Of a stretch of 64,000 bases of DNA, positions 2,334 through 59,130 are shown one piece after another. A model generated the notes under the pieces. The model saw only the letters and a list, made by a program, of their open reading frames with translations, had not been told where the DNA came from and did no database searches. Both the position numbers and the translations under genes were made by a program. How positions within the stretch are numbered: the first letter of the stretch is position 1; each line of letters starts with the position of its first letter. Origin of the DNA: Bacteroidota bacterium (GTDB taxonomy: Bacteria > Bacteroidota > Bacteroidia > Bacteroidales > UBA4417); NCBI GenBank assembly GCA_037142075.1, contig JBAXBJ010000001.1, forward strand, positions 93,617 to 157,616, read 5' to 3'.

Positions 2334-3113
2334 TTATTTTGCCTTGACACATTTTAAATTAAAACCAAAGTTATTATTATATGGCATTGAAAACTTGTAT
2401 CCACAGCCTTGACAATATTGACCAGTATAGATTGGGACAAATTTATGGTCTTTTGAGCTATCAGTTGATGAAGACCAAAAATAGGAATAGTCATCAACAC
2501 CTGTTCCACCCTGATACTTAAATCCGCTACCAGAGGTGCAAAACCCCATACGTTCTAAAAACAAGAACATTATAACCATTTCATCTCCACGGGTCTCTTT
2601 TATTTTCAAAAAGTCATCAAATTTGGCTATTGCCAAATCTAATCTAAAAGTTGGAGGCAAACCTGTTCTTCTATATTTCCCTTTGCACTCGTTACAATGA
2701 ATATTTTGGGCATTTCCCAATAGTCTTTCAATAAGTTGTGGTGAAGATTTTTTTATGATTGAGTCATAAACATGGTGAAATAATTCATGCCAATCGCTTT
2801 CTGATGGTATTCTAAATGATTGTGGACATGCATCAATAGCTGCTTCCCAATCGTAAAGGTGGTCTCGGTACATCCTACCTCTATTTGTTTTATATTCAAT
2901 AATTCCACATGTCCAAGTTTGTTTTCCAATAGTAATTAATGAATAATTTTTCTTATCACGTTTATCTACAAAAGTTTCTGTGGGGCATATCGGTATTTCA
3001 GACAATAATGGTTGTTTTATTGTATCCGCACTTCTTTTATCTTTTTTTTCTGATTTATTTTGACAAGAAATAAGATAAATGGTGAAAAATAGCAATAAAA
3101 TCGTTGTCTTCAT
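2334..3113 (-). CDS. FISUMP (Fibrobacter succinogenes major paralogous domain) lipoprotein
   Basis: Lipobox LISC; DKRDKKNY..ITIGKQTW, LYDWEAA..ACPQSFRIPSESDW, YFWSSS, GFNLKCVK motifs. Confidence 0.8.
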   Translation of the reverse strand: MKTTILLLFFTIYLISCQNKSEKKDKRSADTIKQPLLSEIPICPTETFVDKRDKKNYSLITIGKQTWTCGIIEYKTNRGRMYRDHLYDWEAAIDACPQSFRIPSESDWHELFHHVYDSIIKKSSPQLIERLLGNAQNIHCNECKGKYRRTGLPPTFRLDLAIAKFDDFLKIKETRGDEMVIMFLFLERMGFCTSGSGFKYQGGTGVDDYSYFWSSSTDSSKDHKFVPIYTGQYCQGCGYKFSMPYNNNFGFNLKCVKAK

Positions 3114-3282
3114 TTTAACTGGTTAATTATAAATGCTTTATCTATATTAGCATTCTATTTTTGGACTTACCAATTCCGACCATGGTCTTCTAATACATCT
3201 TCAAATATAGAAATTATATTAGCTTACCAATTATACATTTCGCAATTGATTAAATTTGCTATTTCAAACAAATTCCAGCAAC

Positions 3283-4560
3283 TCATTTGTTATTTGCACT
3301 GAAAACGCTATCGAATTCCTTTTCAAAATTTACTTTATAGTATGCACACCAATATGAAATTATGGTATAACACAATGAATGTGATTTATTGAAAGCGATA
3401 GGTGCTTTCTCCAAAATCATAGTATCTAATTTGTCAATTTCTTCAGAACTTAAACTGCTATTTTCCCTACACCCAGATTTAAATTTAGACCTAAATTCAG
3501 ATATCTTTTCATCGTTCTTACCTTTAGATAGGATTCGTCTATATTTATCTGCTTCAGAATAACTAAATCCTGCAATAACATTTGATAAGTACATAAAAGT
3601 CTCCTGATAAATCAACGTGCCATAAGTTTCATGTAAGATTTCATTTACTCTTCCATCGCTTTTGTATGGGTCTATATATCCGTTTCGCTTATTCTTGATT
3701 AATGAAGGGATGTTGTTAATTGAGTAAGGACGGAACACAGCATTGATTATTGTTAAATCATATATTGAGGTAGGCTGGAAATCATGTAATATTTTACGCA
3801 TTGAATCTGAATTAAATTGAAAGATATCACTTAGGTCTCCATTTTTGAAAAAATCAAATACTTTTTTGTCGGTTAAAGGTAATTTATATGGGTGATACTC
3901 ATCCCCAATTAGTTTTACTATCAACTCTATTTTATTTAGATAATCCAGTTCTAATATGTCAAATTTATAATTGTCTAAGAATTTTGTATTCCTATAATTA
4001 TCAGTATAATAGTATTCCGTATCATTATATTCACCAATTGGAAAAGGCATTTTATCAGGTGAAATAATTATTGCGCAGGGATGTTTTTTATATGAAACGT
4101 CATTGATTATTACTGTTTCATATGTCTCACCACCAGAAGTAGGCAAAAAGGCAAGATTATAAATAAAATGCTTCGGCAACTCTGCTTTCAATTCTTCAAT
4201 TATCATCTTTTGATGTCCGCACGAAATATCAATATCTATATCCGCATTTATTGATAATTCAGGATTAAGAAATCTATCAAAAATTAACCCTTCTTGCAAT
4301 GGGTTGATTTTGGTAATATCTAAGCAATAATTTACAAGTGAACCACATGCTGAGCCTCTACCATAGGAACGAAGAACATCATGAGAATTACAGATTTTTA
4401 CAATTTTCGAATAATTGAGAAAGTAGTCAATGAGGTCAAGTTTTTCGATAATTGACAGTTCATAATTTAACCTATCCAAAACAACATCGTTTATTTCGAG
4501 TTGTTTTAACGAAGCACCATCATAAACTAATGATTTCAAAGTAGTTATTTTATTCTTCAT
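3283..4560 (-). CDS. dnaE: minimal DNA polymerase III alpha-like protein (palm + fingers only)
   Basis: GRGSACGSLV, FDRFLNPE, DIDID, KFDIL, ETYGTLIYQE, FNKSHS motifs; lacks PHP, most of the thumb and all C-terminal domains. Confidence 0.85.
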   Translation of the reverse strand: MKNKITTLKSLVYDGASLKQLEINDVVLDRLNYELSIIEKLDLIDYFLNYSKIVKICNSHDVLRSYGRGSACGSLVNYCLDITKINPLQEGLIFDRFLNPELSINADIDIDISCGHQKMIIEELKAELPKHFIYNLAFLPTSGGETYETVIINDVSYKKHPCAIIISPDKMPFPIGEYNDTEYYYTDNYRNTKFLDNYKFDILELDYLNKIELIVKLIGDEYHPYKLPLTDKKVFDFFKNGDLSDIFQFNSDSMRKILHDFQPTSIYDLTIINAVFRPYSINNIPSLIKNKRNGYIDPYKSDGRVNEILHETYGTLIYQETFMYLSNVIAGFSYSEADKYRRILSKGKNDEKISEFRSKFKSGCRENSSLSSEEIDKLDTMILEKAPIAFNKSHSLCYTIISYWCAYYKVNFEKEFDSVFSANNK

Positions 4561-4938
4561 TTTTAGGTATTAATAAAATATTATCACAGTCTTTTGTTAT
4601 TTCTATTTCAAAAATGTCTTAACTACCACAAAAATGTCAATCTAAAATAAAATAGGTTAAAAATCCTCCCATTAATTAGCCCGTGGTCGGCAATCCGAAC
4701 TATATTTTCATCTGGCAGAATTGCTACTGACACAGTCATAATAGCAAGACCTACTAATATCAGAATTATTTATTCATTGAGAAATCAATTTATAGAGCTA
4801 TTGTAAATCATAAGCAAAAAGTTCACCAGTAAAGGTGACGAAGTATCGAATATAGTCTAAAGCTTGCCAATTGTTATAACCTTTTGTGTATTGTTATTAA
4901 CCGATTACATGTGCACTGTAAATGCTTCACATGTTAAT

Positions 4939-5022
4939 AAACCGCTTTATACGAGAACCATACGCACTGTGGTGTGAGACGTGCACCCCGTCAGTGCTAA
5001 ATGGCTGGACTGTCTACTCGAT
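4939..5022 (+). mobile_element. group II intron remnant (domains V-VI, class IIC-like)
   Basis: AACCGCtttatacGAGAaccatacgcactgtggtgtGAGA (DV with CGC triad), DVI ending ...CTACTCGAT; no RT ORF. Confidence 0.75.
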
Positions 5023-5138
5023 AGGGGTATGTGCTTTGTCTTCCGCTGTCTTACTGTGCTGGCAAGACAAACTCTTATGCAATTTCTGGTCTGATTGTCA
5101 GTTTGTCGAATTGCGAAGGTGTATGGCTTTTGGGTGGA

Positions 5139-7271
5139 TTAATTACAATATCTCCTTTTTAATTCTTCAATCATTATGTCTATTGTTTTTAAAGCTATTT
5201 TACCTTGTCTGGAAACATTATTTTTCAAATGGTTAATTACTTCTTCGTTTGAATGCTTATCTAATTTAACCCAACTACCATCACTTTTTTTATATCCATT
5301 TTCTCTATGAACTTTTTGAATCCACTCTATTTCGGATTTTACTTTTTTCCATTCATTTTTTGGAATTAAAGAAGAAATATTTTCAAAAGCATTATAGTCT
5401 TGAATAAACAATTGATTGTCAACGTTATCAAAAAATATTGAAGTTTGTTTTGTAGTTGAATATTTTGGTGGCTTTTCTTCTTTTGTCTGTTTAGATTTAT
5501 TTTTTAAATATGCAATTACAGTTTTCCACTTACCAATCGTGCCTTTTGGATTTTCTATTTCTTCCAAAGCTTTGATAAAGTCTTCCGAAATCTCACCGCT
5601 GTATAACCTAGACATTTCAGTTTTATAAAATTGCTTGTCCTTCTCCTTTATACTTGCAAAGTCAGATGCATTAATTTCAATTTCTTGAGTTAGAATGGAA
5701 ATATTATTACTTGAAAGTTCTACTGTCTTTATCTCAGTATTAATTTTTGATTGGACTGTAATAGTTTTTTGCTTTTCTTCTTTTGGTATATCACCAGACA
5801 ATTCGATATTGTGCAACTGTTTATATATAGTTTTGTAATTTTTTGCCAAATAGTCATAATCTGATTCAAAAAGACTAGCTGTAAATACCCTTGATAAGTT
5901 TGCAAATCCACAAATACAACCATAAAAGCCAAAGGCAAGACGACCATCTTCAATTTCAGAAGAAATGAGAAAATCATTTAACTTTTCAAAATCTTCTCCT
6001 TTTAGAAGAAATGAAGCAATTGCAGATATTAAACCAGTATTCCAATTAATATTAAATGCTTCTTGCCCTGCAATATTTCGTCTTAAATTGTTTAGGAATT
6101 TATTTGCATCGTGGTTTTTCCATTCTTCGTCACCGACATAACTCTTAATTTTCCTTGTTATCTCGTCAGCTAAATTTGACTTTTCTGAACTAAATAAAGA
6201 TTCCGTAATATCAGAAGAAACAAAAATATCATTAATTAAATTTTGATACATTTCTTTTGTTTCTAGTTTCACAATAAATGGGTCTTCGTATTGTGTCAGT
6301 CTATTCCCAGCTAATGCAATGTTGCTCCAATCCAGTTTAGGTTTCACAATATTGCTACTTTCTATCATTTTATTACTCCAGTTTTTCAACTCTTGTAATG
6401 AAGTTTCATATTTTGCCTTATCTGTTAGGGAATGACTATAATTTTCGAAATTGTATTTATTTGGAATCCTCATTCCAAACTGGTTATATATTCTATTCCA
6501 AACATCATTGTATTGGTCAGGTAGAACTGTTTTTAAAAATTCTTTTACATCGTTGTATTGATGCGCATTAATTTTTTGTAAGAGAAATTTAAGTTCATCA
6601 TTTTGCTGTTGAGTACCATTACCAGAAACACTATTAACAATAGCTGAAGACAGATTGATGATTTTATTAATGACATTTTTTAATTGAATGTTTTCTTTTG
6701 ATGTTGAATTGTTTGCTGCAATTAAATATGCATATGCAAATCCTTTTATTTTGTTTTTTTGATTGTCATTTTCTAACTCATGATAATTGAGAATTGGCAA
6801 ATCAGATATTCCCTCTAACTTGTAATCTTTTTTTTCTGATTGATAGACTTTAATACAATTCCAATATAGCTTTACCAATTTAGTTTCAGCACTAGATTCG
6901 GAACGTGAAAGAATTGTACTTTTATCCTCAGATGAAAAGAAATATATATTTGAACTAAATGGGTTCAAGTAAATCGTTCTATCGATTTGCCAAATGTCAT
7001 TATGTATCTTTTTCAATCCGTTTACTTCGGAATCAATGTCAACTTCGATTACCATTGGATAATTGACTAATTCGCTTTTAGGGATTTGCAATTCGGGGAA
7101 TACTTCATAAAGAAGTAAGGAATTATTAAAGTTGTTTAATTCAACCTTCTCAAAAGTTTTATACCCAAAGTTTCTTTGAGTATAAAATACAAAAGGAGAT
7201 ATTGTCTCACAAGACATTATGTTGTTAAAGTTCAGAGAACTTGTTGGTATAAATAATTTCATAAATCTCAA
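5139..7271 (-). CDS. hypothetical protein, last gene of four-gene operon (N-terminus loosely DarT/ART-like)
   Basis: 710-aa ORF starting 3 bp after the helicase gene; N-terminal LFIPTSSLNFNNIMSCETISP. Confidence 0.8.
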   Translation of the reverse strand: MRFMKLFIPTSSLNFNNIMSCETISPFVFYTQRNFGYKTFEKVELNNFNNSLLLYEVFPELQIPKSELVNYPMVIEVDIDSEVNGLKKIHNDIWQIDRTIYLNPFSSNIYFFSSEDKSTILSRSESSAETKLVKLYWNCIKVYQSEKKDYKLEGISDLPILNYHELENDNQKNKIKGFAYAYLIAANNSTSKENIQLKNVINKIINLSSAIVNSVSGNGTQQQNDELKFLLQKINAHQYNDVKEFLKTVLPDQYNDVWNRIYNQFGMRIPNKYNFENYSHSLTDKAKYETSLQELKNWSNKMIESSNIVKPKLDWSNIALAGNRLTQYEDPFIVKLETKEMYQNLINDIFVSSDITESLFSSEKSNLADEITRKIKSYVGDEEWKNHDANKFLNNLRRNIAGQEAFNINWNTGLISAIASFLLKGEDFEKLNDFLISSEIEDGRLAFGFYGCICGFANLSRVFTASLFESDYDYLAKNYKTIYKQLHNIELSGDIPKEEKQKTITVQSKINTEIKTVELSSNNISILTQEIEINASDFASIKEKDKQFYKTEMSRLYSGEISEDFIKALEEIENPKGTIGKWKTVIAYLKNKSKQTKEEKPPKYSTTKQTSIFFDNVDNQLFIQDYNAFENISSLIPKNEWKKVKSEIEWIQKVHRENGYKKSDGSWVKLDKHSNEEVINHLKNNVSRQGKIALKTIDIMIEELKRRYCN

Positions 7272-7274
7272 ATT

Positions 7275-8321
7275 TTAAATGTCGCTAATTTCGTCAAATT
7301 CCGTTGTTTTATAAAAACGTTCTGGAACATTACCATTAATAAATGAAGTTAAATCTCCATTATGCATTATGTATAGGTTTTTATAAGTTCTTGTCATTGC
7401 AACATATAATGATTTTTGTTTGCTGTGTCCTTTACCATCATTTTCAATTGTGCAATCTGGCAAAAATACAGTTTCAAATTGTAATCCTTTCGCAGAATGA
7501 TAAGTCATCAATTTAGGATTGGAACTATTGAAATTTAAAGTATCTATGCCTTTACCATCTTCATTGTATCGTACTTCATTGTTTATACCAGCTTTAGTTA
7601 GTAAAATACTAGCATTTTTGACTTGCGCCCCTATAGGGAAAAATATTCCCACATCAGTTAGATTATTATTTTTAATTATTCTTGCAATTGCTTCTATTTG
7701 TTTATCGTAATTTGAATACCGAATAATTCGAGGGATTGAATTCTCAGTGCTTTTATAAGTACCTTCATTATATCGAGTTCCGACACCTATGTGGCTTTCA
7801 GTAACTTTAGCTATCGGCTTTGGTAACCTATAATTGAAATATAAAGGAAATTCTGACAATCCTGCTTGATAGGCAATATCACGAATGTTTTGTGTATCTT
7901 TCAATCCATCATATATTGACTGTGCTGTGTCTCCAAAAAAGAAAAAATGTTTACGGGTTGCCTTCTTGAATTCCTCAATTTCTTCTTTTGTAAAATCCTG
8001 TATTTCGTCAACTATTACATAATCTGATTTAGGACATCCTAGTCTGTTTTTCCAATGCCAGTGATAGTAAAAATCATTTTTTAACTCTAAGGCGTTTCGT
8101 CCAGAATTCATATAACCACTTAAAGATTTTGTAAAAACAATGATTTGATAGTCATTGCCTTTTTCTTTTTGAATCTGTTTTGCTTTGTGTAAAGCAATAA
8201 CTGATTTACCGCTACCAGCACACCCCGACACAACCATTGATTGGTCTAAGGTGCGGTATAATAAATCTCTTTGATAATCATCTAAATCTGATTCTTTAAT
8301 AAAAAAATCTTTCTTTGCCAT
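7275..8321 (-). CDS. short UvrD/SF1 helicase-like ATPase
   Basis: Walker A GCAGSGKS, Walker B VDEIQD, GDTAQSIY, NYR, TYHSAKGLQF, LYVAMTR. Confidence 0.9.
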   Translation of the reverse strand: MAKKDFFIKESDLDDYQRDLLYRTLDQSMVVSGCAGSGKSVIALHKAKQIQKEKGNDYQIIVFTKSLSGYMNSGRNALELKNDFYYHWHWKNRLGCPKSDYVIVDEIQDFTKEEIEEFKKATRKHFFFFGDTAQSIYDGLKDTQNIRDIAYQAGLSEFPLYFNYRLPKPIAKVTESHIGVGTRYNEGTYKSTENSIPRIIRYSNYDKQIEAIARIIKNNNLTDVGIFFPIGAQVKNASILLTKAGINNEVRYNEDGKGIDTLNFNSSNPKLMTYHSAKGLQFETVFLPDCTIENDGKGHSKQKSLYVAMTRTYKNLYIMHNGDLTSFINGNVPERFYKTTEFDEISDI

Positions 8322-8331
8322 ATCTTGATGT

Positions 8332-9639
8332 TTAAATTTTATAATTATCTTTAACTAAATCCCCTTTACTTTTTGTGCAATATTTCCCACAATTATCATC
8401 TCTTTCAAAGATGTTTATATATAAGCAGCTGTTTTCGAATGATGTAACATGATTCACAAAATTAGCATTTGCTAAAATTCGATAAGCTACCTTACTTTTA
8501 TCATTCATTTTTAGAGAATGAGTAATATTGAAAGTGCGCTGAGTAAAGCAATTGACAGAACAATCTTTTTCAAATTCACCACAAGAGACTGGAATAAGTG
8601 TTTTATAGTCACTTAATTCATTTACTGCCCTATTTACCTGTAAATTCATTAAGATAGGATTATAGGTTATCCCAACTTTTGTTGTTACATCTAACAACAA
8701 GAACAGCCCGACCTGTGATAATCTTGGCAAACTAAATTTTGTTAAGTTATAATAAATGTCAGTATTCCCTTCTGCAATGAGTTCGCAACCCATTTTAAAC
8801 GACATTATGAAATCATAATTTGAATCTATAATCCATTCTAAATCTTTTGCCGAATGTATTGATTGACACTTTGTAATCAGTTTTATGGTAAAAGTAGCTT
8901 TGTAAGTAAATTCATCTACTAAGCCGCTTAAAACGCTGAGAGCACTTGAATGCCCATCTACAGCAATGATATTAATATTTTTAGTTGCTAAGCAGTATTT
9001 ATTTATGGCAACTAATAAACCAATCAGATTTCCACCTGTACCGCATCCAATATCAAGAATATTTATTTCTTCTTTTGTTGCTAAATCCGAATAATGTTTG
9101 TTCTCAAAAATATTGTCAAATACACAAAAGCTTTCTCCATAGCTTCTTGGAAAATATGTACCGAGATAAACTCTCAATTCGTCATCTGACAAATTTAGGT
9201 TTTTTTCATACCGTTCGTGGTCAGGAGCATAATGGCCTTTGTATTTCTCGAAAATACTTTGTTGTAACCAAGTTGGCAGAATTGAAGAGTTTTTTAAAGC
9301 CTCTATTTGAGTTTGCTCTTTGCTAATTAATCTTGATTGGTCGTCCTTATGCTTTTCAATTAGTTTTTTTCGACTAAATCCTTCAAACCAGTAAAGAATA
9401 TTGTGATGATTGTTGTTGATGATACTTACTGGCTTGTGAAGAAAACTTTCATATTGTTCTTTCGCAATTGCAGTATCATTACTGTTAACCCAAATGCAAA
9501 CTATATAATCAGATTGAAATTCGATGTTTTCAATGATTTTGGGTAAAATGTCATTTTCACCGTACACCTGAAATTCATCGACATCTATCTCAATTGAATC
9601 AACAATTTGTTTTGCTAGTTGGGTTAGACTATCTCTCAT
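8332..9639 (-). CDS. class I SAM-dependent methyltransferase, Rsm22-like
   Basis: YLGTYFPRSY, ILDIGCGTGG, C-terminal P..C..C..CF.QR cysteine cluster. Confidence 0.75.
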   Translation of the reverse strand: MRDSLTQLAKQIVDSIEIDVDEFQVYGENDILPKIIENIEFQSDYIVCIWVNSNDTAIAKEQYESFLHKPVSIINNNHHNILYWFEGFSRKKLIEKHKDDQSRLISKEQTQIEALKNSSILPTWLQQSIFEKYKGHYAPDHERYEKNLNLSDDELRVYLGTYFPRSYGESFCVFDNIFENKHYSDLATKEEINILDIGCGTGGNLIGLLVAINKYCLATKNINIIAVDGHSSALSVLSGLVDEFTYKATFTIKLITKCQSIHSAKDLEWIIDSNYDFIMSFKMGCELIAEGNTDIYYNLTKFSLPRLSQVGLFLLLDVTTKVGITYNPILMNLQVNRAVNELSDYKTLIPVSCGEFEKDCSVNCFTQRTFNITHSLKMNDKSKVAYRILANANFVNHVTSFENSCLYINIFERDDNCGKYCTKSKGDLVKDNYKI

Positions 9640-9642
9640 TTG

Positions 9643-10671
9643 TTATGTTCCTGTAATAGTTTCAGATGTTTGACTGTTGTCTTTGATGCGATTATAGTTG
9701 TCTATAACAACCTTTTTACTTGTGTTGGCATAGCAATATTCGCACAAGTGAAGACAAGTGTTGTATTCACCGACATCCTTACTAAAAATGCAACCACAAA
9801 GTTCTCTCTGACCTTTATCTTTTAAATTCCGTTTTCTAATAGGTATTAGTTCTTCTCTTGTGTCAAATAAATCTGCTTTTTTAAGTTCATAGCCTAAGAA
9901 CTCCATTAGTTTCGTGTCATTATAAAATAGACGTTTCATTAAATCATCATCAATACACCTGTTGTGAATGATTCCATATTTTTCTAAATCTATTTTTTCT
10001 GCACAAGTACCAATTTCTATTTGCCACTTTTGATTTAGTTCTTTTAGTCCTTTTGCAAATTCATTCATTGAAATATCGTCAAATTCCGAATATTTTATAT
10101 TCTCTCTATTTAGGTTTGAATGAACCTTTCTATAAATCCCAATATCAGCAAAACTAAACACAAGCTTTTCTGTGTATTGAAACAATTGATTGCCAATTGT
10201 ATCTATTTTATTCAGTATTTCGTTTACTCCAATTTTGTCTGTAAGAATCAGTGGGTCAAATCTCCAAATAACTTTTTCTTTACCAATCTTTTCAGATAGT
10301 TTAATAAAAGTTTCAATTCTTGATTCCACACTAGGTACACTTGGCTCTAATTTTTCTTTTACATAGTCATTTAATGTAAATTGAAAATAGTAATTAAATT
10401 TTTTGTCATTTAAATAATCAAGATGCTGAATTATTGGTTTTGGATTTTTTGACCAAAACACGACTAATCGAGTGTTGTTAAATGTTACAAAAAGAGGTTT
10501 CTGGTTAAATGGATTTTTCCAGACCAGATATCCTTCTTTTAATCGGTTAATAAACCATTCCGAGTAAAATGCAGGTATATCAGTTGAGCGACTTGCGGAT
10601 AAAATAATAGGAGCTTGAGCTTCAAGAACTTCACCATCTTGTCTTGTCATTTTAATTTTTTCCCAATCCAT
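9643..10671 (-). CDS. DUF1848 family protein (radical SAM/SplB-related)
   Basis: ILSASRSTDIPAFY, VFWSKNP, WRFDP, C-terminal CGC..DVGEYNTCLHLCEYCYAN. Confidence 0.9.
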   Translation of the reverse strand: MDWEKIKMTRQDGEVLEAQAPIILSASRSTDIPAFYSEWFINRLKEGYLVWKNPFNQKPLFVTFNNTRLVVFWSKNPKPIIQHLDYLNDKKFNYYFQFTLNDYVKEKLEPSVPSVESRIETFIKLSEKIGKEKVIWRFDPLILTDKIGVNEILNKIDTIGNQLFQYTEKLVFSFADIGIYRKVHSNLNRENIKYSEFDDISMNEFAKGLKELNQKWQIEIGTCAEKIDLEKYGIIHNRCIDDDLMKRLFYNDTKLMEFLGYELKKADLFDTREELIPIRKRNLKDKGQRELCGCIFSKDVGEYNTCLHLCEYCYANTSKKVVIDNYNRIKDNSQTSETITGT

Positions 10672-11421: not shown

Positions 11422-11886
11422 TTATTTGCCACAACATTTTTTGAACTTCAATCCGCTACCGCAGGAACAGGGTTCATTTCGTAACGGTGTTTTAGCTGCA
11501 ATTATTTTAGCTGTATTTTTATCAGGTAAAAAACGAACTAAAGGCACTGGATTTTCATCAGTTCCAATTTCAAGGTGTTTCTTTTCATCTGGGATTCTGT
11601 TCAGATCAATGATTCCTTCAATTAAATACTGAAGATCAGCAGATGCCCGAATTCCAAATGCTGCTGCTTGTATCACTTGATCGTTATCAAACACAACAAC
11701 TGGACACTTAGTACAAAAATGACTACCTGAATGATTGGTCATAAATTCACCTTGATCTGATTTTGTTTTTACTGAAAGAAGAATCGTACAGTTAAATTCA
11801 AGCAATTCAGAACCGCATTCAGGGCAATGTTTTAACCCACAATCCCTACTGTAATATCTTCTTTTTGACGTAGATAAATCAATCAT
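11422..11886 (-). CDS. SEC-C motif protein with N-terminal zinc ribbon
   Basis: CPECG...CTKC; C-terminal RNEPCSCGSGLKFKKCCG. Confidence 0.85.
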   Translation of the reverse strand: MIDLSTSKRRYYSRDCGLKHCPECGSELLEFNCTILLSVKTKSDQGEFMTNHSGSHFCTKCPVVVFDNDQVIQAAAFGIRASADLQYLIEGIIDLNRIPDEKKHLEIGTDENPVPLVRFLPDKNTAKIIAAKTPLRNEPCSCGSGLKFKKCCGK

Positions 11887-12037: not shown

Positions 12038-12352
12038 TTATTGCTCAAGACTGATTTTGAAATGAGGCAATTCAACTTGTAACATCACTTTCGCCTGTAA
12101 AGCATTAAATACTCGCATAAGAGTCTCAATTGTAACATTACTGGCATTATTTTCAATTCTCGAAATTTGTGCTTTTTGCACACCAATTAGTTTCCCAAGC
12201 TCCTCTTGAGTTAATTTTCGCTCCTGTCTTGTCTGTTTTATTGCTTGCCCAATTAAGTCCATTTGTAATTCATATTCAAATCTGTCACGGTTTGGGGTGC
12301 CAATTTTACCGATAAGTTTATCTTGAACTTCGTCTAAAGTATGTGTTTTCAT
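12038..12352 (-). CDS. XRE-family HTH antitoxin (HigA-like)
   Basis: IKQTRQERKLTQEELGKLIGVQKAQISRIEN; overlaps the upstream toxin by 4 bp. Confidence 0.9.
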   Translation of the reverse strand: MKTHTLDEVQDKLIGKIGTPNRDRFEYELQMDLIGQAIKQTRQERKLTQEELGKLIGVQKAQISRIENNASNVTIETLMRVFNALQAKVMLQVELPHFKISLEQ

Positions 12353-12708
12353 TTCTTTGTCTTATTAGTGATTTCTTTATCTTCAAAATATCGTGAACGA
12401 ACTTGCTTTGCCTTCTGAATTTCGCTGTCAGGTGTTTTGCTGGTTTTCTTGACTATTCCATGGGTTGAAATAACAAGGGTATTTTCAGAAATTGTTTTAT
12501 CCCAAAATGCAAACAACCTATAATGAATTCCTTGATATAGCGTTCTGAATTCCCAAATCTCATCTTTAAGTTTTTTGAATAGTTCAGGATCATGCCTTGT
12601 CTGAGCTTTACGAATATTAAAGATGATTTTTTCGTAGTGCTTCTTCTCAAGATTACTGAGAAATTCAAAAGTCTCGTCTAAAAATATAATGTCAAAAAGT
12701 TTGTCCAT
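12349..12708 (-). CDS. RelE/ParE-superfamily toxin (HigB/Gp49-like)
   Basis: FKKL..EIWEFRT..YRLFAFWD..THGIVKKTSKTP..EI. Confidence 0.9.
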   Translation of the reverse strand: MDKLFDIIFLDETFEFLSNLEKKHYEKIIFNIRKAQTRHDPELFKKLKDEIWEFRTLYQGIHYRLFAFWDKTISENTLVISTHGIVKKTSKTPDSEIQKAKQVRSRYFEDKEITNKTKK

Positions 12709-12736: not shown

Positions 12737-12879
12737 CTTAATATGTTTCTATATAATGAAACTATTTTTAGATTGGATTTTTTTTTCAACTATGATCTAT
12801 AATGTTTGAGTTTAACAATTTGGCGGTTATTGAGCTTCGCCAAGGATATCAAAACTAATTAGCTTAACATTTTTATGCT

Positions 12880-13000
12880 ACAAGCCATTATCGCAGAAAT
12901 AGGGTTCATTTCGTAATGGTAATTGTCTGCTATTAGAAGATCGGTATTTATATCAGGTACGAAACGGGCTAATAAGTTATCCCATTTCTACGTTTATATT
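12880..13000 (-). pseudogene. decayed copy of the 3' part of the SEC-C gene
   Basis: AGGGTTCATTTCGTAATGGT...TATCAGGTACGAAACG matches 11470-11540. Confidence 0.6.
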
Positions 13001-13008
13001 TTGATTTA

Positions 13009-13239
13009 TCAAATTGTGAATGAGTATTTCCTACCGTCATCCAAACTATGGCTACCCATATTATGCCAATGAACCCAAATATCCCCTGACTTATTCTCAT
13101 AGTTATGGAACTCAACCCAGCCGTCAGAATGAGTTCGTTTTTCATCCGTTCCACCTAACCAGCCATAGTCGATCATCACACCAATATCACCTGCTGGTTT
13201 ACCGTCTTTATAGGTTACTTTTACTGAGAAGTGGCTCAT
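13009..13239 (-). CDS. small hypothetical protein
   Basis: 76-aa ORF coupled (TAATG overlap) to the NERD gene. Confidence 0.65.
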   Translation of the reverse strand: MSHFSVKVTYKDGKPAGDIGVMIDYGWLGGTDEKRTHSDGWVEFHNYENKSGDIWVHWHNMGSHSLDDGRKYSFTI

Positions 13240-14048
13240 TATTCAAATATCCTTTCCTTGCCCAACATATTCTTAATATTTCCTATATGCTGTATTTGAG
13301 TTTCCATATTTTCTCCATTTTGCACGCCTTCTTTTAAAATCCTCACAACATCGGCTTTATTTGTATAAGGAGCTGGTTCATTATTTTTTGCAATTATTTT
13401 CATAACCTCTAATACTCTTTTCGATTTCACAAGGTAAGTTCCATTCGGAACGAAACTTACCTCCTTCAAAACACAGTCACCATAAAACACCACGATTGAA
13501 TAAAATGGGATATTTTGAAATTGTTCTAATTGCATCTTTAAATCAATTATATGCTTATTATTCTGCATTATAGGATTGTAAAAACGGTATTTATTTTTTC
13601 CGTACGCTAACACTTGTGTCCATTGGGCATAATTTCCATTTCCATAAATCCAACCGCTGAAATCCTTTACTTCGAATACTATAATCCCCACCTTCGTGAC
13701 TACTACCAAATCAATTTGAGAAAAATCACCATCCTTCTTTTTTACATATAGGTCGTGAAAAATGGTCTGTGCAGGTATTCCGTGTTTCAAAAGTTTTAAT
13801 ACCAAATCTCTTTCTGTTTTTGTGCCTCTATTTGATTTCGTGACGGTATTTAATATTTTTTTGTCTCGTATTTTACTAAAGATGAAAATGAAGCTAAAAA
13901 GGAGAACTATACTAATTATAATCCACATCAGGATACTCGGATATGGCATTATATCTTTTTTAAATGGTTCTTGCACCCAAAATAAAACGATAATCAAGAA
14001 TAATGCAATTCCGAATGTCTTTTGTTTTTTGGAACCAATTTTAATCAT
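13239..14048 (-). CDS. NERD domain nuclease with N-terminal TM helices
   Basis: SQIDLVVV..GIIVFEVKDFSGWIYG..W..FYNPIMQN..H. Confidence 0.85.
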   Translation of the reverse strand: MIKIGSKKQKTFGIALFLIIVLFWVQEPFKKDIMPYPSILMWIIISIVLLFSFIFIFSKIRDKKILNTVTKSNRGTKTERDLVLKLLKHGIPAQTIFHDLYVKKKDGDFSQIDLVVVTKVGIIVFEVKDFSGWIYGNGNYAQWTQVLAYGKNKYRFYNPIMQNNKHIIDLKMQLEQFQNIPFYSIVVFYGDCVLKEVSFVPNGTYLVKSKRVLEVMKIIAKNNEPAPYTNKADVVRILKEGVQNGENMETQIQHIGNIKNMLGKERIFE

Positions 14049-18957: not shown

Positions 18958-20685
18958 CTACTTCACAAACCCAATCCTGCTCCGCTGTTGGGATTTGCCG
19001 ATATTTTCCTCTTTGAGGTAGTTAATAATCAGCGCAAGCTCTGGTCGGTCAGTTCCATATAATGCCCGTTGCATTACCAGTTTCCGCTGGACATTTTCGA
19101 TGATGGCTCCCGTGATCTCATACTTGGATAAGATCATGAGTTCCTGCTGGTTCAACCACGGTATTTTATCAGACCATATCTTTCTGCGGACTTCAATACT
19201 CGGCTTTTCAAATTTCTTCTTTATTATAAACCTCCTATAGAAACTATCGTCAAAATTATCCTGAAGGTTGGTCGTTGATAGCAAAATTCCATTTAGGGTC
19301 TCAAATTCATTCAACAGAATAGTGATTATGACATTATTCGTAGTCTGGATGCTTTGATTTGCAATATCACCACCATGTCGCTTACCTAAAATTCCATCTG
19401 CTTCATTTAGCAGAAATATTGGAGCCAACGTTGATTTCACAACCATCTCACGATAAAAATCGAATGCTTTTTTAATCAATTTTTCACTTTCGGAATAGTA
19501 CATCGATTTTGCCTCACTAAGCTTGAAATTAAATATATCCCTGCCCGTTTTTTTAGCAATGGTATAACAGAGCTGAGTCTTTGAAGTACCTGCTTCACCG
19601 TAAAACAACATACACAAGCCTTCGGGTAAACCATCGTCAGCCAACCGTTTCACCATGTTTTGATAGTTTTCTGGTTGAAGAATATCAATGATGAAATCGA
19701 TTTCTTTTTGATCCTCTTCAGTATAGAAAAGGTGTTTTTCAACAATATCTTCAGTTTTGATAATCTGGAATTGTTTGTTCGGTGCTGTTTTTGTTTTGTT
19801 AAACATTTCAGCATTTTCTCCAACCAAAAGCACCCATGCTTTTTCGCTCAAATGAACAGAAGAGTCTTGTCGGAAATAACCTTTTACAAGTTCAACAAGT
19901 TCAAACTTTTGGAGCGGGTGTTCATTGTTTATGAACTGCTTTCGAATCCTCATGTTTTCTTTTATGTCAGGAAAAAGAAAACAAACCAACTTAGTTAGAT
20001 CAACTTCATCATTTGGATCATCGAGGAAAGCACTACATAAACATAAAAACAAAATCTGATCTTGGTTATCTAAATTTATCACCCTGAGGTCTTTAACAAA
20101 CTGGATGTCATTATTTTGCTCCAGCGTTTCGTTCACGACTGAGTATACTTCGGCTTCATTCTGATACTCGTCTTTTGAGCTAATTACATTTGTGATAATT
20201 TTCAATAAATCAAAAACATCAGCAACTTTTCGTGATGCGGGGGAATATTTTTCATTAGTTGTAAGGGCATGATAAAAATCCTTGTTGACAAAATACTCTT
20301 GCGAATTTAGCTGAGTTTGTCTGCGCCTTTTTCTGTTGTCTTCGGCTGTCGGTCTAATAAATTGCCGATCAATCAGGATTTTTATCTGTGGAATGTGTTT
20401 TGCAAGCGTTATCGGACTGATATCAAAGAATCGTGAAAGCTCAGTAAACTCAACCGAATTTGATTGAAGATTTATAGTAATAAGTGCTGAAAGCAAAATA
20501 GTTTGAAGCTCGGTAATTCCGTAAAAATCAGCCACAATCTGAACATGTGGGCGAACCAAATCTTTGAATTCCTCAGACAGGTTAGACTCATAGGCTTGAT
20601 TGGCAATGATCTCAACATTGTCAAGTATTGAAAGCGTTTCGATATCTTCTATCATTTGAAAGGGTTGTTTCGTTTTATTGGTCAT
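18958..20685 (-). CDS. AAA+ ATPase with N-terminal winged-helix-like regions
   Basis: GEAGTSKT Walker A variant, FLLNEAD Walker B, TTN, D..FYRRF, C-terminal RIGF. Confidence 0.85.
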   Translation of the reverse strand: MTNKTKQPFQMIEDIETLSILDNVEIIANQAYESNLSEEFKDLVRPHVQIVADFYGITELQTILLSALITINLQSNSVEFTELSRFFDISPITLAKHIPQIKILIDRQFIRPTAEDNRKRRRQTQLNSQEYFVNKDFYHALTTNEKYSPASRKVADVFDLLKIITNVISSKDEYQNEAEVYSVVNETLEQNNDIQFVKDLRVINLDNQDQILFLCLCSAFLDDPNDEVDLTKLVCFLFPDIKENMRIRKQFINNEHPLQKFELVELVKGYFRQDSSVHLSEKAWVLLVGENAEMFNKTKTAPNKQFQIIKTEDIVEKHLFYTEEDQKEIDFIIDILQPENYQNMVKRLADDGLPEGLCMLFYGEAGTSKTQLCYTIAKKTGRDIFNFKLSEAKSMYYSESEKLIKKAFDFYREMVVKSTLAPIFLLNEADGILGKRHGGDIANQSIQTTNNVIITILLNEFETLNGILLSTTNLQDNFDDSFYRRFIIKKKFEKPSIEVRRKIWSDKIPWLNQQELMILSKYEITGAIIENVQRKLVMQRALYGTDRPELALIINYLKEENIGKSQQRSRIGFVK

Positions 20686-21239
20686 GCGTTATTATCTAAT
20701 AATTCATCCCAAGAGTCCAGAAGTAACTGCTCCAATGGTGTAGTAGGAGTTTCAACGGTTGAACTATAATGAGTCGCAATTTGATTGATTCCCATCAATA
20801 TCTTTAGAATTGAAATAGGTTTTCCATGGTTATCAGTTTTAAATTCTTCAAAATACAAGGTGGTTTCGTTTTCCTCATCTAATACCGAATGGTAAGTAAG
20901 TCGAATAGATTCATAGATTAGTTCAGTATCATCCGATTTGCCGAAACACTTTATTTTTGCTAATGATCTGTCGGTTTTTATGTTGATTTTTTGGCTAAGG
21001 TGTAAAATGAGTCGTTGTTTGTAAATTTGATTGTCAAAATAAATTTCGCCATACAAGTTTAAATACATTGGTTTAGGCACATACGGATATATTTTTTTTA
21101 CTTTATCAGGGGTCATGGATTCCATGATTTCTACCATCTCCTCATAAGTACAAGGCTCATTATCATCCCATCTAATTATCCGTGAATTGGATTTATCAGT
21201 GTAAGTTTCCCATTCAACTCTTGTTATCATAGATTTCAA
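20682..21239 (-). CDS. hypothetical protein
   Basis: 185-aa ORF with 4-bp overlaps to both neighbours. Confidence 0.7.
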   Translation of the reverse strand: MKSMITRVEWETYTDKSNSRIIRWDDNEPCTYEEMVEIMESMTPDKVKKIYPYVPKPMYLNLYGEIYFDNQIYKQRLILHLSQKINIKTDRSLAKIKCFGKSDDTELIYESIRLTYHSVLDEENETTLYFEEFKTDNHGKPISILKILMGINQIATHYSSTVETPTTPLEQLLLDSWDELLDNNA

Positions 21240-22774
21240 TTTGAAGGTTTATGTGATAAAGAAACTACCCAATTCTGAACAAATTGATTAGCCTCAGTTT
21301 TGTAACCATTTTTCGCCAAATGGGGTGACATTATGAGCTGGGTCTCGATTTTGTTTTTGCTGACATAAATGGCTTCTGTAAGTTTAAGAGCTTTTTTATA
21401 CCGCTTACGTTTCAACGCTAATAACGGCATGTAGGAGTAAATATAATTTTTACAATTCCATTCTAAGGTCATCTTTGTGGCTAATCCGAAAAGCCCGTTT
21501 TCAGCAAATGATAGTGTAATTTTATTACACAATTCATCAGCCACTTTAGTGTCGTCCAAAAAATAAACCGTGTCAGATGCAACTTTGCATAAACGCTTAA
21601 TCTCTGAATTGTTGGTGGACGAATTTGTGATTTCGTTTTCCCTAACCAGTTTCTTAATTTGCTTAAGGATAGTGAAAATCGCACAACTCACATCCGTTGT
21701 GTGATTTTGATCCATCATCCAACCACCATTGCAGCCAACACCACCCCATTTTTCGCATAAAAGATCATAAGCCTGTGCGGTATATTCATAAAAAATTGTT
21801 GAGGAGAACAGATAGTTAAATACTAAACAGCCCTGCTCAAAATCAAGCACTTTATCGATTCGGTATAACACATCTTCAACACGCATTTTGAGCTCATCAG
21901 GACGACCAAAGATCATTTCAATTTCGGCAAGCTCAGTAGCACACATACTTTGAATAAACAAATCATCCATATCTCCAACAAGTTCTACGGCTTCATCTAT
22001 CATGACATCTACGACCAAGGTGTTTTTAGTCCGAATATGGTATAATATAATCTGAACTAAAACCTCAAACCTGATTAAAGGCTGATCCTGATGCCCAAGC
22101 ATTTCAAAAGCTTTATCATAAAGGTCATTTTTGAGATACGCTTCAGCCAGCTCTGAATAAAGAAAAGCACTTTTTGGGTAACTTTTATATTGAAATGTAA
22201 TATTCTCCGCTTCGTCAAATTCTTTCTTTAACAGATGAGCCGCAAATATTGCTTCTATTACAAAGAATCTATCATCCCGTAAATAGATTTCATGTAACAT
22301 TTTTTTAGCCTTTTTATGGTTGTTTGCTTCAACGCAATTTTCAGCAATTTTCAGAAGTGCATTCTGGCACCTTTGAGTTTCGAGCTTTGAATAGAAGAAA
22401 ATTAATGAGTTAACGTATTTGTCATCAGCAAAATCACCTAAGGTTAATAGGACAGACAAACCCTGTTCGTGTCTGTTTAAATCTATGCCATTGAGCATTG
22501 GTTCTATATCAACACCCAAAACGTGTAGGTCTATTAATAGCTGGAACAGATATTTATCAGGCACCAGATCAAACAATTTCGCTGGGGAATTACCCGTTGA
22601 AATCAAAAGTTCATTCATCAAAATACCGACTACTTTTAATTTTTCGGTTTCATCCAGAGATACCTCATATAGTTTGCCGTGTAAACTGGCAATTATAGCT
22701 AAGGTAGCCTCGTTAGAACTTATATTTTGTCCTTGAAAAAGATCGGATGTTTTGATGCCTGAAGGCTCTGTCAT
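21236..22774 (-). CDS. TPR-like helical repeat protein
   Basis: Repeated LAEAYL...YDKAFE-type helices. Confidence 0.7.
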   Translation of the reverse strand: MTEPSGIKTSDLFQGQNISSNEATLAIIASLHGKLYEVSLDETEKLKVVGILMNELLISTGNSPAKLFDLVPDKYLFQLLIDLHVLGVDIEPMLNGIDLNRHEQGLSVLLTLGDFADDKYVNSLIFFYSKLETQRCQNALLKIAENCVEANNHKKAKKMLHEIYLRDDRFFVIEAIFAAHLLKKEFDEAENITFQYKSYPKSAFLYSELAEAYLKNDLYDKAFEMLGHQDQPLIRFEVLVQIILYHIRTKNTLVVDVMIDEAVELVGDMDDLFIQSMCATELAEIEMIFGRPDELKMRVEDVLYRIDKVLDFEQGCLVFNYLFSSTIFYEYTAQAYDLLCEKWGGVGCNGGWMMDQNHTTDVSCAIFTILKQIKKLVRENEITNSSTNNSEIKRLCKVASDTVYFLDDTKVADELCNKITLSFAENGLFGLATKMTLEWNCKNYIYSYMPLLALKRKRYKKALKLTEAIYVSKNKIETQLIMSPHLAKNGYKTEANQFVQNWVVSLSHKPSN

Positions 22775-27786: not shown

Positions 27787-29244
27787 ATGTCATCAAATTG
27801 GTATACGGTTAGCTGCGATGATTGCGGCTGTGAAATTGCAGTACATGAAGATTGGAGTAATGCACCAACATTATGCAAATCTTGTTTGCAACAAAGGAAA
27901 GACAAATGGTATGATGCTTCATGTTCGAGTTGTGGCTCGACAATACGTATTAATAGAGAATGGGATAAACCGCCCTCTCTTTGCAAAAGTTGTATCGAAA
28001 GAAAAAAGAATGATTGGTATGAAATAAGTTGTAAGCATTGTGGAACTTCTATTAGTGTTCGACATGACTGGGATAGTAAACCCACACTCTGTAAATCTTG
28101 TATTGCCAAAGAAAGAGCTCTGTGGTATGACAAATCCTGCAAACATTGCGGATCAACTATTAGCGTAAATAGAGAATGGTCGAACATCCCCGAACTTTGT
28201 AAGTCATGTATAGAAAAGGAGAAGGCTAAATGGTATCACAAATCGTGCAAGCATTGCGGGACAAGTATGAAGGTTTGTAGTGATTGGGAAAACATTCCCG
28301 ATTTATGCAAACCATGTATTGAAAGAGAAAAGGCTAAATGGTATAATAAACCGTGTAAACATTGTGGCTTAAGCATGAAAGTATGCAAGGATTGGGATAA
28401 TATTCCTGACTTGTGTAAATCTTGCATCGAGAAAGAAAGGGCTAAATGGTATGATAAATCATGCAAGAAATGTGGAAGCGTGATTAAAGTGAATAAAGAA
28501 TGGGGAAAAATTCCCGATTTATGCAAATCGTGTGTGGAAATTGAAAAGAAAAAATGGGTTGAAATTTCATGCAGTTGTTGTAGTAATAAAATCAGTATTA
28601 ATAAAGATTGGGAGAACCCGCCTACAATATGCAAGAGTTGCCTTTCAAAATATGAAGCGAAAGATAAAAGCTGTGTACAATGTGGGAAAAGTTTTAAACT
28701 AACGACTAAACTTCAAATTCGTTGCCATGAAAACGGCTGGAATTTACCCGAAATTTGCCCAGAATGTAAAACTGACGCACTTCTTATCAGAGGTGCGATT
28801 GGCTCCCTACGAGATCAATTTCCTTTTGCTTTAGAAACAACAATAGAAAAGAGAGGTTTTCTTTTCACTGATAAAGTTGCTGTAGTAAGAAGTAAAAAGA
28901 CAAGAGAAGTTGTAGCTGAAGTAAAAATGGATACACAAGGTTTTATCTTTGTCGAAAGGGTTGCTGTTGCTACAAATATTAAAACAAAGGAGAAAATTTC
29001 GAAAACATTTGAAAGTGTTGACGGTTTTTTATTTCCAGAAAGAACAGCCACTACCAAAGACTATAAAACTAATACAGCAACTCACATTACTAAAATTGTT
29101 GAAGAAGGGTTTTTATTCCCAGAACGCTTTAGTGAAACCAGAAGTGTTGACCACAACGATTCTACAGTAACTCGATCTAAAGAAAATACACGAGGAATTA
29201 TATTTAAAGAAAATTATGTGGATACCAATAAGAAGAAGCCCTAA
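27787..29244 (+). CDS. poly zinc-ribbon protein (8 x CxxC-x16-CxxC plus a zf-trcl-like finger) with C-terminal GFLF repeats
   Basis: Eight 36-aa repeats W(Y/V)xxxCxxC...W...P..CKxC visible in the translation. Confidence 0.85.
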   Translation: MSSNWYTVSCDDCGCEIAVHEDWSNAPTLCKSCLQQRKDKWYDASCSSCGSTIRINREWDKPPSLCKSCIERKKNDWYEISCKHCGTSISVRHDWDSKPTLCKSCIAKERALWYDKSCKHCGSTISVNREWSNIPELCKSCIEKEKAKWYHKSCKHCGTSMKVCSDWENIPDLCKPCIEREKAKWYNKPCKHCGLSMKVCKDWDNIPDLCKSCIEKERAKWYDKSCKKCGSVIKVNKEWGKIPDLCKSCVEIEKKKWVEISCSCCSNKISINKDWENPPTICKSCLSKYEAKDKSCVQCGKSFKLTTKLQIRCHENGWNLPEICPECKTDALLIRGAIGSLRDQFPFALETTIEKRGFLFTDKVAVVRSKKTREVVAEVKMDTQGFIFVERVAVATNIKTKEKISKTFESVDGFLFPERTATTKDYKTNTATHITKIVEEGFLFPERFSETRSVDHNDSTVTRSKENTRGIIFKENYVDTNKKKP

Positions 29245-36324: not shown

Positions 36325-36328
36325 ACTG

Positions 36329-36667
36329 AGATATTTTAAAAGTATTCAAAAAGTAACCAGCAAGTATTCCGAAAGTAACCAGAAAACATTCTTTCAATTA
36401 TATGCTAACTAATTAACTAACTGATGTTTGGGCTTTTTACTGATTGGTTGATAGTTTGCTGCTGGTATTAAACAGTAACCAGCAACGTAACCAGCAGCGT
36501 AACCAGCAGCGTAACCAGCAGCGTAACCAGCAGTGTAACCAGCAGTGTAACCAGCAGTGTAACCAGCAGTGTAACCAGCAAAGTAACCAGCAAAGTAACC
36601 AGCAAATTCCTTATTATTCTTCATGCACTTTAAGCCATTCTTTACCAAAAGTTGTAATAATATACTG
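36329..36667. repeat. direct repeat copy A (partner at 45271-45501)
   Basis: TTAAAAGTATTCAAAAAGTAACCAGCAA...TTATTATTCTTCATGCACT..AAGCCATTCTTTACCAAAAGTTGTAA shared. Confidence 0.85.
36475..36606. repeat. 12-bp tandem repeat, 11 units GTAACCAGCA(AC/GC/GT/AA)
   Basis: Counted directly: 1+3+4+3 units. Confidence 0.95.
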
Positions 36668-38059: not shown

Positions 38060-38071
38060 ATCGGTAGTTCA

Positions 38072-39433: not shown

Positions 39434-39438
39434 TATAC

Positions 39439-41271: not shown

Positions 41272-41282
41272 AATGCACCGTT

Positions 41283-45270: not shown

Positions 45271-45501
45271 AGACATCTTAAAAGTATTCAAAAAGTAACC
45301 AGCAAATATTCCGAAAGTAACCAGAATACATTCTTTCAATAATATACCAACTAATTAATTAACTGATGTATGGATGTTTTAATGATTGATTGATGGTTTG
45401 CTGCTGGTTTTAAAAAGTAACCAGTAAAGTAACCAGCAAATTCATTATTATTCTTCATGCACTCTAAGCCATTCTTTACCAAAAGTTGTAAAAACAGACT
45501 G
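45271..45501. repeat. direct repeat copy B (partner 36329-36667), with only 2 units in place of the 11-unit array
   Basis: Includes the last codons of the AlbA_2 gene (FGKEWL.VHEE*). Confidence 0.85.
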
Positions 45502-45641
45502 TGGATTTTGCTGTACATAGATACAGGTTCTTCCCGTTCTTATCTCTAAATTCCCTGAAGAATAAAGTAACGAATTTCATTGCCGACATAGAAATTGTTT
45601 ACACTCTCTAAAAATCAATACTTCTATCTTTTAATAAAAAA

Positions 45642-58786: not shown

Positions 58787-59130
58787 TCGCTATCCTCCTT
58801 CTTTGTTGTTGTTCCTGATGCACGCAAACGCTCCTTACCGCTTAGTTTGGCCATCTGTAAAGGGCTTACCTGGCTGGTCACCTGCCAATTGTCGAGTAGT
58901 TGCAATTGCTGTAAAGCTCTTAAAACCTGCACAGTTGTAAGCAGTGAAGCTACTGTCTTTCCGTTTTCAATGTCGCTGATTGCAGAGCGGGAAAGACCGG
59001 CGTTTTCAGCGACCTGTTCCTGGGTAAGGTTTTGCTGTAACCGTATCTGCCTTAGAAAAATCCCGAGTTGGCTTACAATGGCAGGATCGCTCATGCTGTA
59101 CCAATTTGTTGTATTACCTGGAGTTGTCAT
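58780..59130 (-). CDS. XRE HTH antitoxin (HipB-like)
   Basis: RLQQNLTQEQVAENAGLSRSAISDIENG; overlaps the hipA start. Confidence 0.85.
   Translation of the reverse strand: MTTPGNTTNWYSMSDPAIVSQLGIFLRQIRLQQNLTQEQVAENAGLSRSAISDIENGKTVASLLTTVQVLRALQQLQLLDNWQVTSQVSPLQMAKLSGKERLRASGTTTKKEDSEW

Follow-up and report, generated by a model that had tools for sequence, protein, structure and literature searches.

Surveys of the C-family DNA polymerases recognise DnaE1, DnaE2 and DnaE3 together with PolC (PMC3919608, PMC12926913), and the 2013 survey adds a few sequences termed "DnaEX". An arrangement of PHP, Pol3 and tandem helix-hairpin-helix, (HhH)2, domains is treated there as the invariant core of the family (PMC3919608), and the PHP domain is described as strictly conserved in the replicative polymerases and as a major structural element of them (Barros et al. 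2013, PMC3666897). Both surveys, of 2013 and 2026, state that truncated or fragmentary sequences were removed (PMC3919608, PMC12926913). The gene considered here, mini-DnaE, encodes just such a short form. It lies in a stretch of 64,000 nucleotides (nt) from a Bacteroidota bacterium of the Bacteroidales lineage UBA4417 (GenBank assembly GCA_037142075.1, contig JBAXBJ010000001.1, positions 93,617 to 157,616), the whole of which is called the window below and in which all positions are counted. Its product is predicted to be a real enzyme of a conserved family, found so far mainly in Bacteroidota, and not the remnant of a broken gene. A mini-DnaE-like group is not described in the texts of the 2013 and 2026 surveys, as distinct from their supplements, and the literature searched on truncated, PHP-less or defence-linked DnaE yielded nothing that describes the family.

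The open reading frame (ORF) is intact, with an ATG start and 425 codons in the translation of the window, and is read from the minus strand; a preliminary description made from the letters alone had likewise claimed an intact frame of 425 amino acids (aa) at 3283..4560, with no strand given. Because an in-frame TAA stands 12 nt upstream of the ATG, the frame cannot reach further in the N-terminal direction, and the short N-terminus is real. The protein was compared with the solved DnaE chains of E. coli, Thermus aquaticus and M. tuberculosis (PDB 2hnh, 2hpi/3e0d and 5lew). The alignments and the Pfam matches divide the gene as follows:

3283..4560, minus strand: the mini-DnaE gene, 425 aa plus the stop codon at 3283-3285 (ORF list, Pfam PF07733 and PF17657, family of the same length).
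4183..4539, minus strand: first part of the palm, residues 8-126, with GRGS and the catalytic D107 and D109 (PF07733, profile 3-122 of 260; ungapped alignment to E. coli).
4087..4182, minus strand: short linker, residues 127-158, at the site of the thumb in full-length DnaE (alignments to Thermus and E. coli).
3934..4086, minus strand: second part of the palm, residues 159-209, with KHPCAII and the catalytic D201 in KFD (alignment from E. coli residue 510 on).
3460..3933, minus strand: fingers, residues 210-367, with YQE and ADKYRR (Pfam PF17657, profile 4-165 of 166, 129 bits).
3286..3459, minus strand: C-terminal helices, residues 368-425, with FNKSH (alignment to E. coli).

Palm and proximal fingers align to the solved DnaE chains at E-values of 1e-40 to 1e-69. 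In the HMMER alignments, residues 29-125 run gap-free with E. coli 323-419 and residues 159-418 pair with E. coli 510-784, while the family profile pairs 24-138 with Thermus 380-494 and 157-418 with Thermus 573-843; the N-terminus corresponds to about residue 295 of E. coli DnaE and the C-terminus to about residue 790. Every motif that had been named from the sequence could be located by residue number, namely GRGS (67-70), NPEL (99-102), DIDID (107-111), KHPCAII (159-165), KFD (199-201), ADKYRR (337-342) and FNKSH (390-394), and YQE is found at 318-320. The catalytic aspartates D107, D109 and D201 are equivalent to E. coli D401, D403 and D555, the pair R341 and R342 to R709 and R710, and K392 and H394 to K758 and H760; in the E. 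coli enzyme D401, D403 and D555 are active-site residues and H760 is the steric gate (PMC8485763). By sequence alignment, the residues that bear C-family chemistry are thus kept, including the one that excludes ribonucleotides: the palm has its three catalytic aspartates and the GS loop, and the fingers have the Arg pair, the Lys and the steric-gate His in place.

The accessory parts are missing: the PHP domain, the thumb inserted in the palm, the (HhH)2 domain, the OB fold and the clamp-binding motif. At the site of the linker, nothing corresponds to Thermus 495-572 or to E. coli 420-509, and full-length relatives carry about 55-60 extra residues there; part of the absent piece, Thermus 513-552, was assigned to the thumb by Timinskas et al. 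(2013, PMC3919608). The interval between DIDID and KHPCAII, given at first as about 47 aa and fewer than in full DnaE, is exactly 47, where the HMMER residue mapping gives 104 for E. coli and 107 for Thermus. The further statement that the ORF stops right after the fingers holds for the finger model of Pfam. It does not hold for the fingers as structural papers count them, with additional subdomains that mini-DnaE lacks.

The profile libraries agree with this layout. Pfam finds the first half only of DNA_pol3_alpha (111 bits over the profile span given above) and DNA_pol3_finger, and no match in mini-DnaE to PHP (PF02811), HHH_6 or OB. Coverage of the NCBIfam DnaE model ends at position 775 of 1146. 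All DnaE and PolC cut-offs of NCBIfam are missed, the highest scores being 263 bits where 434 are required and 257 bits where 1002 are; the top model is the DnaE1 equivalog NF004226, and the DnaE2 model NF004225 gives 164 bits against a cut-off of 939, below the DnaE1 models. The ESM Atlas contains a confident model of mini-DnaE itself (predicted template-modelling score, pTM, 0.88; predicted local distance difference score, pLDDT, 0.86), and DnaE clusters are the structural neighbours of this predicted fold, with a TM score of 0.90 over 411-413 residues. By features, its neighbours are clusters of 369-490 aa, the few classified members of which are mostly Bacteroidota.

The absence of imuA, imuB or another DnaE half nearby, as first claimed, was borne out by tblastn and by Pfam scans of the 54 other ORFs of the window. 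Ten longer relatives used as tblastn queries match the mini-DnaE locus alone, the two remaining matches below E = 1 having E-values of 0.23 and 0.9 at 52.4 and 23.7 kb, and they reveal no remnant of PHP or of the other lost domains in the flanks. The Pfam scans find no PHP, HHH_6, ImuA or ImuB-type domain in those 54 ORFs.

The reduced architecture is shared. A protein search with mini-DnaE gave 306 matches at E ≤ 1e-3, and among the best 120 of these, 117 have a length of 404-463 aa and align over nearly the full length at 39-100% identity; the preliminary description had named the lack of the same truncated architecture in any other genome as what would speak against it, and the search found the opposite. 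A hidden Markov model built from 56 relatives and applied to 260 proteins identified 132 of them as full-length family members (410-463 aa, median 426), with N- and C-terminal overhangs of about zero. In a profile search of 1.84 billion cluster representatives, the family comprises about 30 representative clusters at the 50% identity level, counting proteins of 414-433 aa that match in a single stretch with more than 330 bits.

Within the 132 members the catalytic aspartates are retained in 116 (D107), 121 (D109) and 124 (D201), and further conserved positions are D111, R68 and H394 (129 each), K392 (126) and E320 (130). The family was then set against 92 full-length DnaE proteins over the same 423 columns, a column being called conserved at 85% or more. 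Of 95 columns conserved in full-length DnaE, 56 are also kept in the mini family, all catalytic columns among them, and 30 columns are conserved in the mini family alone, e.g., C57, N58, R64, N77, D81, E204, H223-P224-Y225, W404 and Y408. Since the catalytic columns are kept and the family has these conserved columns of its own, it appears to be under its own purifying selection. As far as sequence can tell, the comparison demonstrates that a mini-DnaE family exists, with fixed boundaries, an active site under purifying selection and conserved positions peculiar to it. The claim of a clean domain loss with catalytic residues kept, in place of random decay, is accordingly upheld by a family of uniform length and by the conservation of its active site. 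No clamp-binding motif is conserved, the 132 sequences containing 33 loose matches at varying places.

In a FastTree phylogeny of 151 sequences, the mini family is one clade of 34 tips (support 1.0, stem 0.92), which is joined with six thumb-less forms at a support of 0.92. The clade is also monophyletic in an IQ-TREE -fast tree of 37 sequences, but there it is attached elsewhere and not to the thumb-less forms. The two trees disagree on the attachment, and repeated loss of the thumb is possible. The thumb-less forms in the profile search are of two kinds. The proteins P0281, P0284, P0312, P0350 and P0354 (670-762 aa) contain a PHP domain and have the same C-terminal end, whereas P0315, P0374 and P0351, DnaE-like proteins of 401-452 aa that are distinct from the mini family, start with Met and have neither PHP domain nor thumb. 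Like the mini family, P0281, P0350, P0315, P0374 and P0351 have a gap at the site of the thumb and the same C-terminal end, and the three PHP-less forms also have the same N-terminal start. These five differ from the mini family in retaining canonical DnaE residues, GPGRGS and YQEQ among them, and on DnaE1 models P0315 and P0374 reach 417-422 bits, far more than mini-DnaE. The reduced forms that were scanned, a set to which P0351 and P0092 did not belong, have their best NCBIfam score on a DnaE1-type model or on a generic one for polymerase III alpha, and not on the DnaE2 model. P0092 itself is a family member with a C-terminal extension of 210 aa, which has no Pfam or PADLOC family and no similarity to proteins of the window or to the 707-aa family described below.

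No member of the mini family was found among 50,697 phage and 72,556 plasmid records, in which all matches were below 60% identity and the best of those listed were 28-37% identical and in two pieces; a phage origin of mini-DnaE is not borne out by these collections. The closest relative of the thumb-less candidates in the phage collection, MT836180.1, has a full-length ORF of 1236 aa. A search of genome contigs for relatives returned at least 80 loci, all of them housekeeping dnaE with ORFs of 644-1404 codons.

Between about 3.3 and 57 kb, the window resembles a defence or mobile island by Pfam and PADLOC. The island includes a type I restriction-modification system, a type IV-like HNH enzyme, an IetA-like ATPase, a GajB-like helicase, a NERD protein, toxin-antitoxin pairs of the Gp49/HTH and HipA/HTH kinds (HTH, helix-turn-helix), a resolvase and an integrase. 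Directly upstream of mini-DnaE, on the same strand, a group of four genes is found across a spacer, mini-DnaE being the next gene downstream of the group:

4561..5138, no strand assigned: non-coding spacer of 578 nt upstream of mini-DnaE (terminator scan, folding z-scores, Rfam).
5139..10671, minus strand: four-gene module of a DUF1848 protein, an S-adenosylmethionine (SAM)-methyltransferase-like protein of 435 aa, a superfamily 1 (SF1) helicase and a 707-aa protein (Pfam, PADLOC).

The spacer presumably holds the promoter of mini-DnaE. A terminator scan placed a terminator-like hairpin on its minus strand at 4823-4838. A structured RNA in the spacer is not supported (folding z-scores of -0.5 and -1.0, plus strand -0.1, Rfam empty). 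The Bacteroidetes promoter motif TAnnTTTG was not found in 4530-5160, and a sigma-70 scan remained at background, with 22 sites where 18.1 were expected.

The DUF1848 protein of the module matches the PADLOC model RTasDUF1848 at 1e-46, and the helicase is of the SF1/GajB-like type. The 435-aa protein has weak matches to SAM-methyltransferases and matches RT_UG35 at its methylase end only (profile 50-155 of 938), for which reason it was not taken for a reverse transcriptase (RT); no RT domain was found in the module. The UG25 and UG35 RTs are fusions with a methylase that are associated with DUF1848 or a UvrD-like helicase (Mestre 2022, PMC9226505), so the module has the accessory set of these methylase-RT systems, but without the RT. 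The 707-aa protein belongs to no family, a PDB profile search with it was empty, and its ESM Atlas model is poor (pTM 0.30).

The linkage of mini-DnaE with the module was judged from longest-contig values and locus tags, with 120 matches listed per family and one contig per cluster. The 707-aa and methyltransferase families, which served as the positive control, share 27 of 120 longest-contig values, and their locus tags lie two apart in three genomes, which means that the module is conserved. The mini-DnaE and 707-aa families share three contigs: that of the window, one of 14724 nt (mini-DnaE 46% identical, the 707-aa protein and the methyltransferase 69% each) and one of 13885/13886 nt. By chance, 0.30 shared contigs would be expected, with P(≥3) of about 0.0025, and the two mini-DnaE copies on shared contigs belong to different subclades. 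Among the matches listed, the shared contigs amount to 3 of the 67 matches of the 707-aa protein on contigs of at least 8 kb, 3 of its 12 close relatives (at least 60% identity), and 3 of the 45 mini-DnaE matches on contigs of at least 8 kb. Module contigs of 235,875, 584,671, 1,963,566 and 2,604,525 nt are not among the mini-DnaE matches listed. The association is clearly facultative, and mini-DnaE is no core part of the module.

The reading favoured here, with moderate confidence, is that mini-DnaE is a working member of a conserved family carved from a DnaE-type polymerase, non-processive and accessory in a defence or mobile island. The family would derive from a C-family ancestor by loss of the PHP domain, thumb, distal fingers, clamp-binding (HhH)2 domain, OB fold and tau-binding end, leaving a Pol-beta-like palm and that part of the fingers which binds the nucleotide. 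The enzyme would bind a deoxynucleoside triphosphate (dNTP) and two metal ions and transfer the nucleotide to a 3′-OH. As it lacks all the elements for gripping duplex DNA or the sliding clamp, it would act only distributively, by short-patch or untemplated addition at nucleic-acid ends or gaps, and it may work alone or with some partner. From its context, mini-DnaE would be an accessory gene of the island with a transcript of its own and not a fixed component of the adjacent module. Its location suggests a role in conflict with phages or mobile elements. The earlier interpretation is partly supported, namely in its claim of domain loss without decay; its proposed nucleotidyltransferase activity, non-processive or template-independent and perhaps anti-phage, would be plausible in view of the lost domains and the defence-island setting. 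A bolder proposal, improbable on present evidence, would see in the family the first case of a C-family polymerase taken into bacterial immunity or into conflict between elements. As a self-sufficient or loosely coupled effector, it would synthesise short or untemplated DNA at the ends of invader or host nucleic acids, much as AbiK- and DRT-type RTs put DNA synthesis to defensive use, and beside the module it would replace the RT of UG25/UG35-like systems.

Several observations weigh against the favoured reading. Of the 95 columns near-universal in full-length DnaE, 39 are lost in the mini family; those corresponding to R396 and R411 of E. coli and to the final Gln of YQEQ are among them. Depending on the position, one or other catalytic Asp is substituted in 8-16 of the 132 members; S70 is Ser in 99 and Thr in 21 more, and R342 is Arg in 82 and Lys in 23 more. 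Compared column for column with full-length DnaE, the core of the mini family is more acidic (median isoelectric point 5.8 versus 6.6, net charge -7.5 versus -2), which argues against strong DNA binding on its own; together with the lack of a thumb, (HhH)2, OB fold and clamp motif, this acidity leads one to expect a distributive enzyme that binds DNA weakly. As for the defence role, neither mini-DnaE (P0001) nor its fused relative P0092 matched a model of PADLOC-DB 2.0.0, and because PADLOC has no model for mini-DnaE, that role rests on location in one window.

Other explanations were weighed as well. The idea that mini-DnaE is an optional polymerase of the adjacent module, supplying DNA synthesis in place of an RT, draws on the adjoining position of the gene on the same strand, on the RTasDUF1848 match and the RT_UG35 methylase end that recall the UG25/UG35 accessory set (PMC9226505), and on three shared contigs where hardly any would be expected by chance, with copies from different subclades. 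It is nevertheless unlikely, as the control pair shares contigs far more often than the mini-DnaE matches listed, four large module contigs do not appear among these, and the spacer with its terminator-like hairpin lies between the genes. Nor is it probable that mini-DnaE is the template-dependent polymerase subunit of a mobile element or repair pathway, its partners providing DNA binding, proofreading or processivity in trans. The retained active site and steric gate would fit such a subunit, DnaE is split naturally in Cbastvirus phages and in the split-DnaE models of NCBIfam, and other thumb-less forms with the same end occur with PHP (P0281, P0350) or without it (P0315, P0374, P0351); however, no gene for a PHP, (HhH)2, OB, primase, clamp or single-stranded DNA-binding protein lies nearby in the window, a conserved clamp-binding motif is lacking in the 132 sequences, and the phage and plasmid collections contain no family member.

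A very unlikely alternative is that mini-DnaE synthesises no DNA but a small nucleotide, for instance a signalling or a modified one, with its Pol-beta-type palm used as in cGAS/DncV-like enzymes. The layout left after the domain losses, a palm plus a helical domain, together with the acidic surface and the location in a defence island, would be consistent with this, as would the nucleotidyltransferase fold of the C-family palm (PMC11646218). The steric-gate His, present in 129 of the 132 members, points instead to the use of dNTPs; there is no evident effector or sensor partner, and no similarity to the CD-NTase models in PADLOC. That the protein is catalytically irrelevant (a decoy or structural protein) or a decaying fragment could be argued from the 39 lost DnaE positions and from the minority of members with substituted catalytic aspartates. 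Fixed length and ends, an intact frame, conserved residues of its own in 132 members at 39-100% identity, catalytic residues among the best conserved and flanks free of remnants of the lost domains make this very improbable.

Other features of the island are recorded here in their own right. The type I restriction-modification locus (HsdR, HsdS and HsdM; 33370-43112, minus strand) is interrupted by two extra genes. One of them (36614-38059) encodes a protein with Schlafen/AlbA_2 and HATPase_c_4 domains that matches PADLOC models associated with prokaryotic Argonaute (pAgo), and the other (39439-41271) a GHKL-ATPase protein of 610 aa. Inside and next to this locus is a duplicated segment of about 340 nt (36329-36671 and 45271-45505), the copies of which are 89-92% identical. 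Copy A contains a 12-nt tandem array, GTAACCAGCAGC repeated 10.8 times (36475-36604), and copy B has two units; on the minus strand, the segment apparently opens a small ORF that encodes, as judged by eye, a run of xAGY repeats. At 18958-22774 on the minus strand, the IetA-like AAA ATPase (575 aa) is preceded by two overlapping genes of no family, of 185 and 512 aa, and the three may form a variant three-gene defence system. An ORF of 485 aa on the plus strand (27787-29244), with weak matches to DUF7560 and DUF7571, contains 108-nt tandem repeats at 28086-28527 (about 3.5 copies, 72% matches), which encode a repeated 36-residue module containing Cys. Among the small defence or toxin-antitoxin genes, the Gp49/HTH pair lies at 12038-12708, the NERD protein at 13239-14048, a SEC-C-motif protein at 11422-11886 and the HipA/HTH pair at 57497-59130; a 51-nt repeat links 11438-11488 with 12870-12920 at 78% identity.

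Among the described C-family polymerases, the DnaE1 proteins of E. coli, Thermus and M. tuberculosis share with mini-DnaE the Asp triad, the GS loop, the Arg pair, the Lys and the steric-gate His. Unlike them, mini-DnaE has no PHP domain, thumb, distal fingers, (HhH)2, OB fold or C-terminal domain, and it stands on a long separate branch. DnaE2 resembles it in being an accessory, non-replicative C-family polymerase, as mini-DnaE is taken to be, and a DnaE2 with reduced PHP and thumb is already described for Bacteroidetes, the phylum of mini-DnaE itself (Timinskas et al. 2013, PMC3919608). However, the DnaE2 of the ImuA-ImuB-DnaE2 mutasome retains the PHP-Pol3-(HhH)2 core, which mini-DnaE does not (PMC3919608), and mini-DnaE has a lower score with the DnaE2 model than with that of DnaE1, and there is no imuA or imuB in the window.

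Division of a DnaE polypeptide is also found in nature. In Cbastvirus phages of Bacteroidota, DnaE is encoded by two adjacent ORFs of about 525 and 673-676 aa, split near the thumb:

2810-6410 of locus L081: split-DnaE genes of Cellulophaga phage phi13:1.
2891-6471 of locus L082: split-DnaE genes of Tenacibaculum phage Larrie.

NCBIfam has separate models for split DnaE, which we take to represent the intein-split halves of cyanobacteria, and the N-half model matches mini-DnaE up to position 760 of 876. As such genes show, DnaE can be divided at its domain junctions, but in them both halves are side by side or joined by an intein, whereas the window of mini-DnaE has no second half.

Outside the C family, AbiK, Abi-P2 and the DRT-type RTs are template-independent polymerases of bacterial immunity, and terminal transferase and the CD-NTases are transferases of the Pol-beta fold. 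The AbiK, Abi-P2 and DRT enzymes would share with mini-DnaE the idea of a polymerase core that serves away from genome replication, in a defence island; the AbiK- and DRT-type RTs and the Pol-beta-fold transferases are of another fold family or have no detectable sequence relation to it. Set beside all of these, mini-DnaE is, on its alignments, a strongly reduced and new variant of the C-family polymerase. A family working without PHP, thumb and clamp-binding parts would, if true, define the smallest natural C-family catalytic unit and serve as a compact model of replicase chemistry in bacteria, and it would raise the question of what use a non-processive DnaE core has in defence islands.

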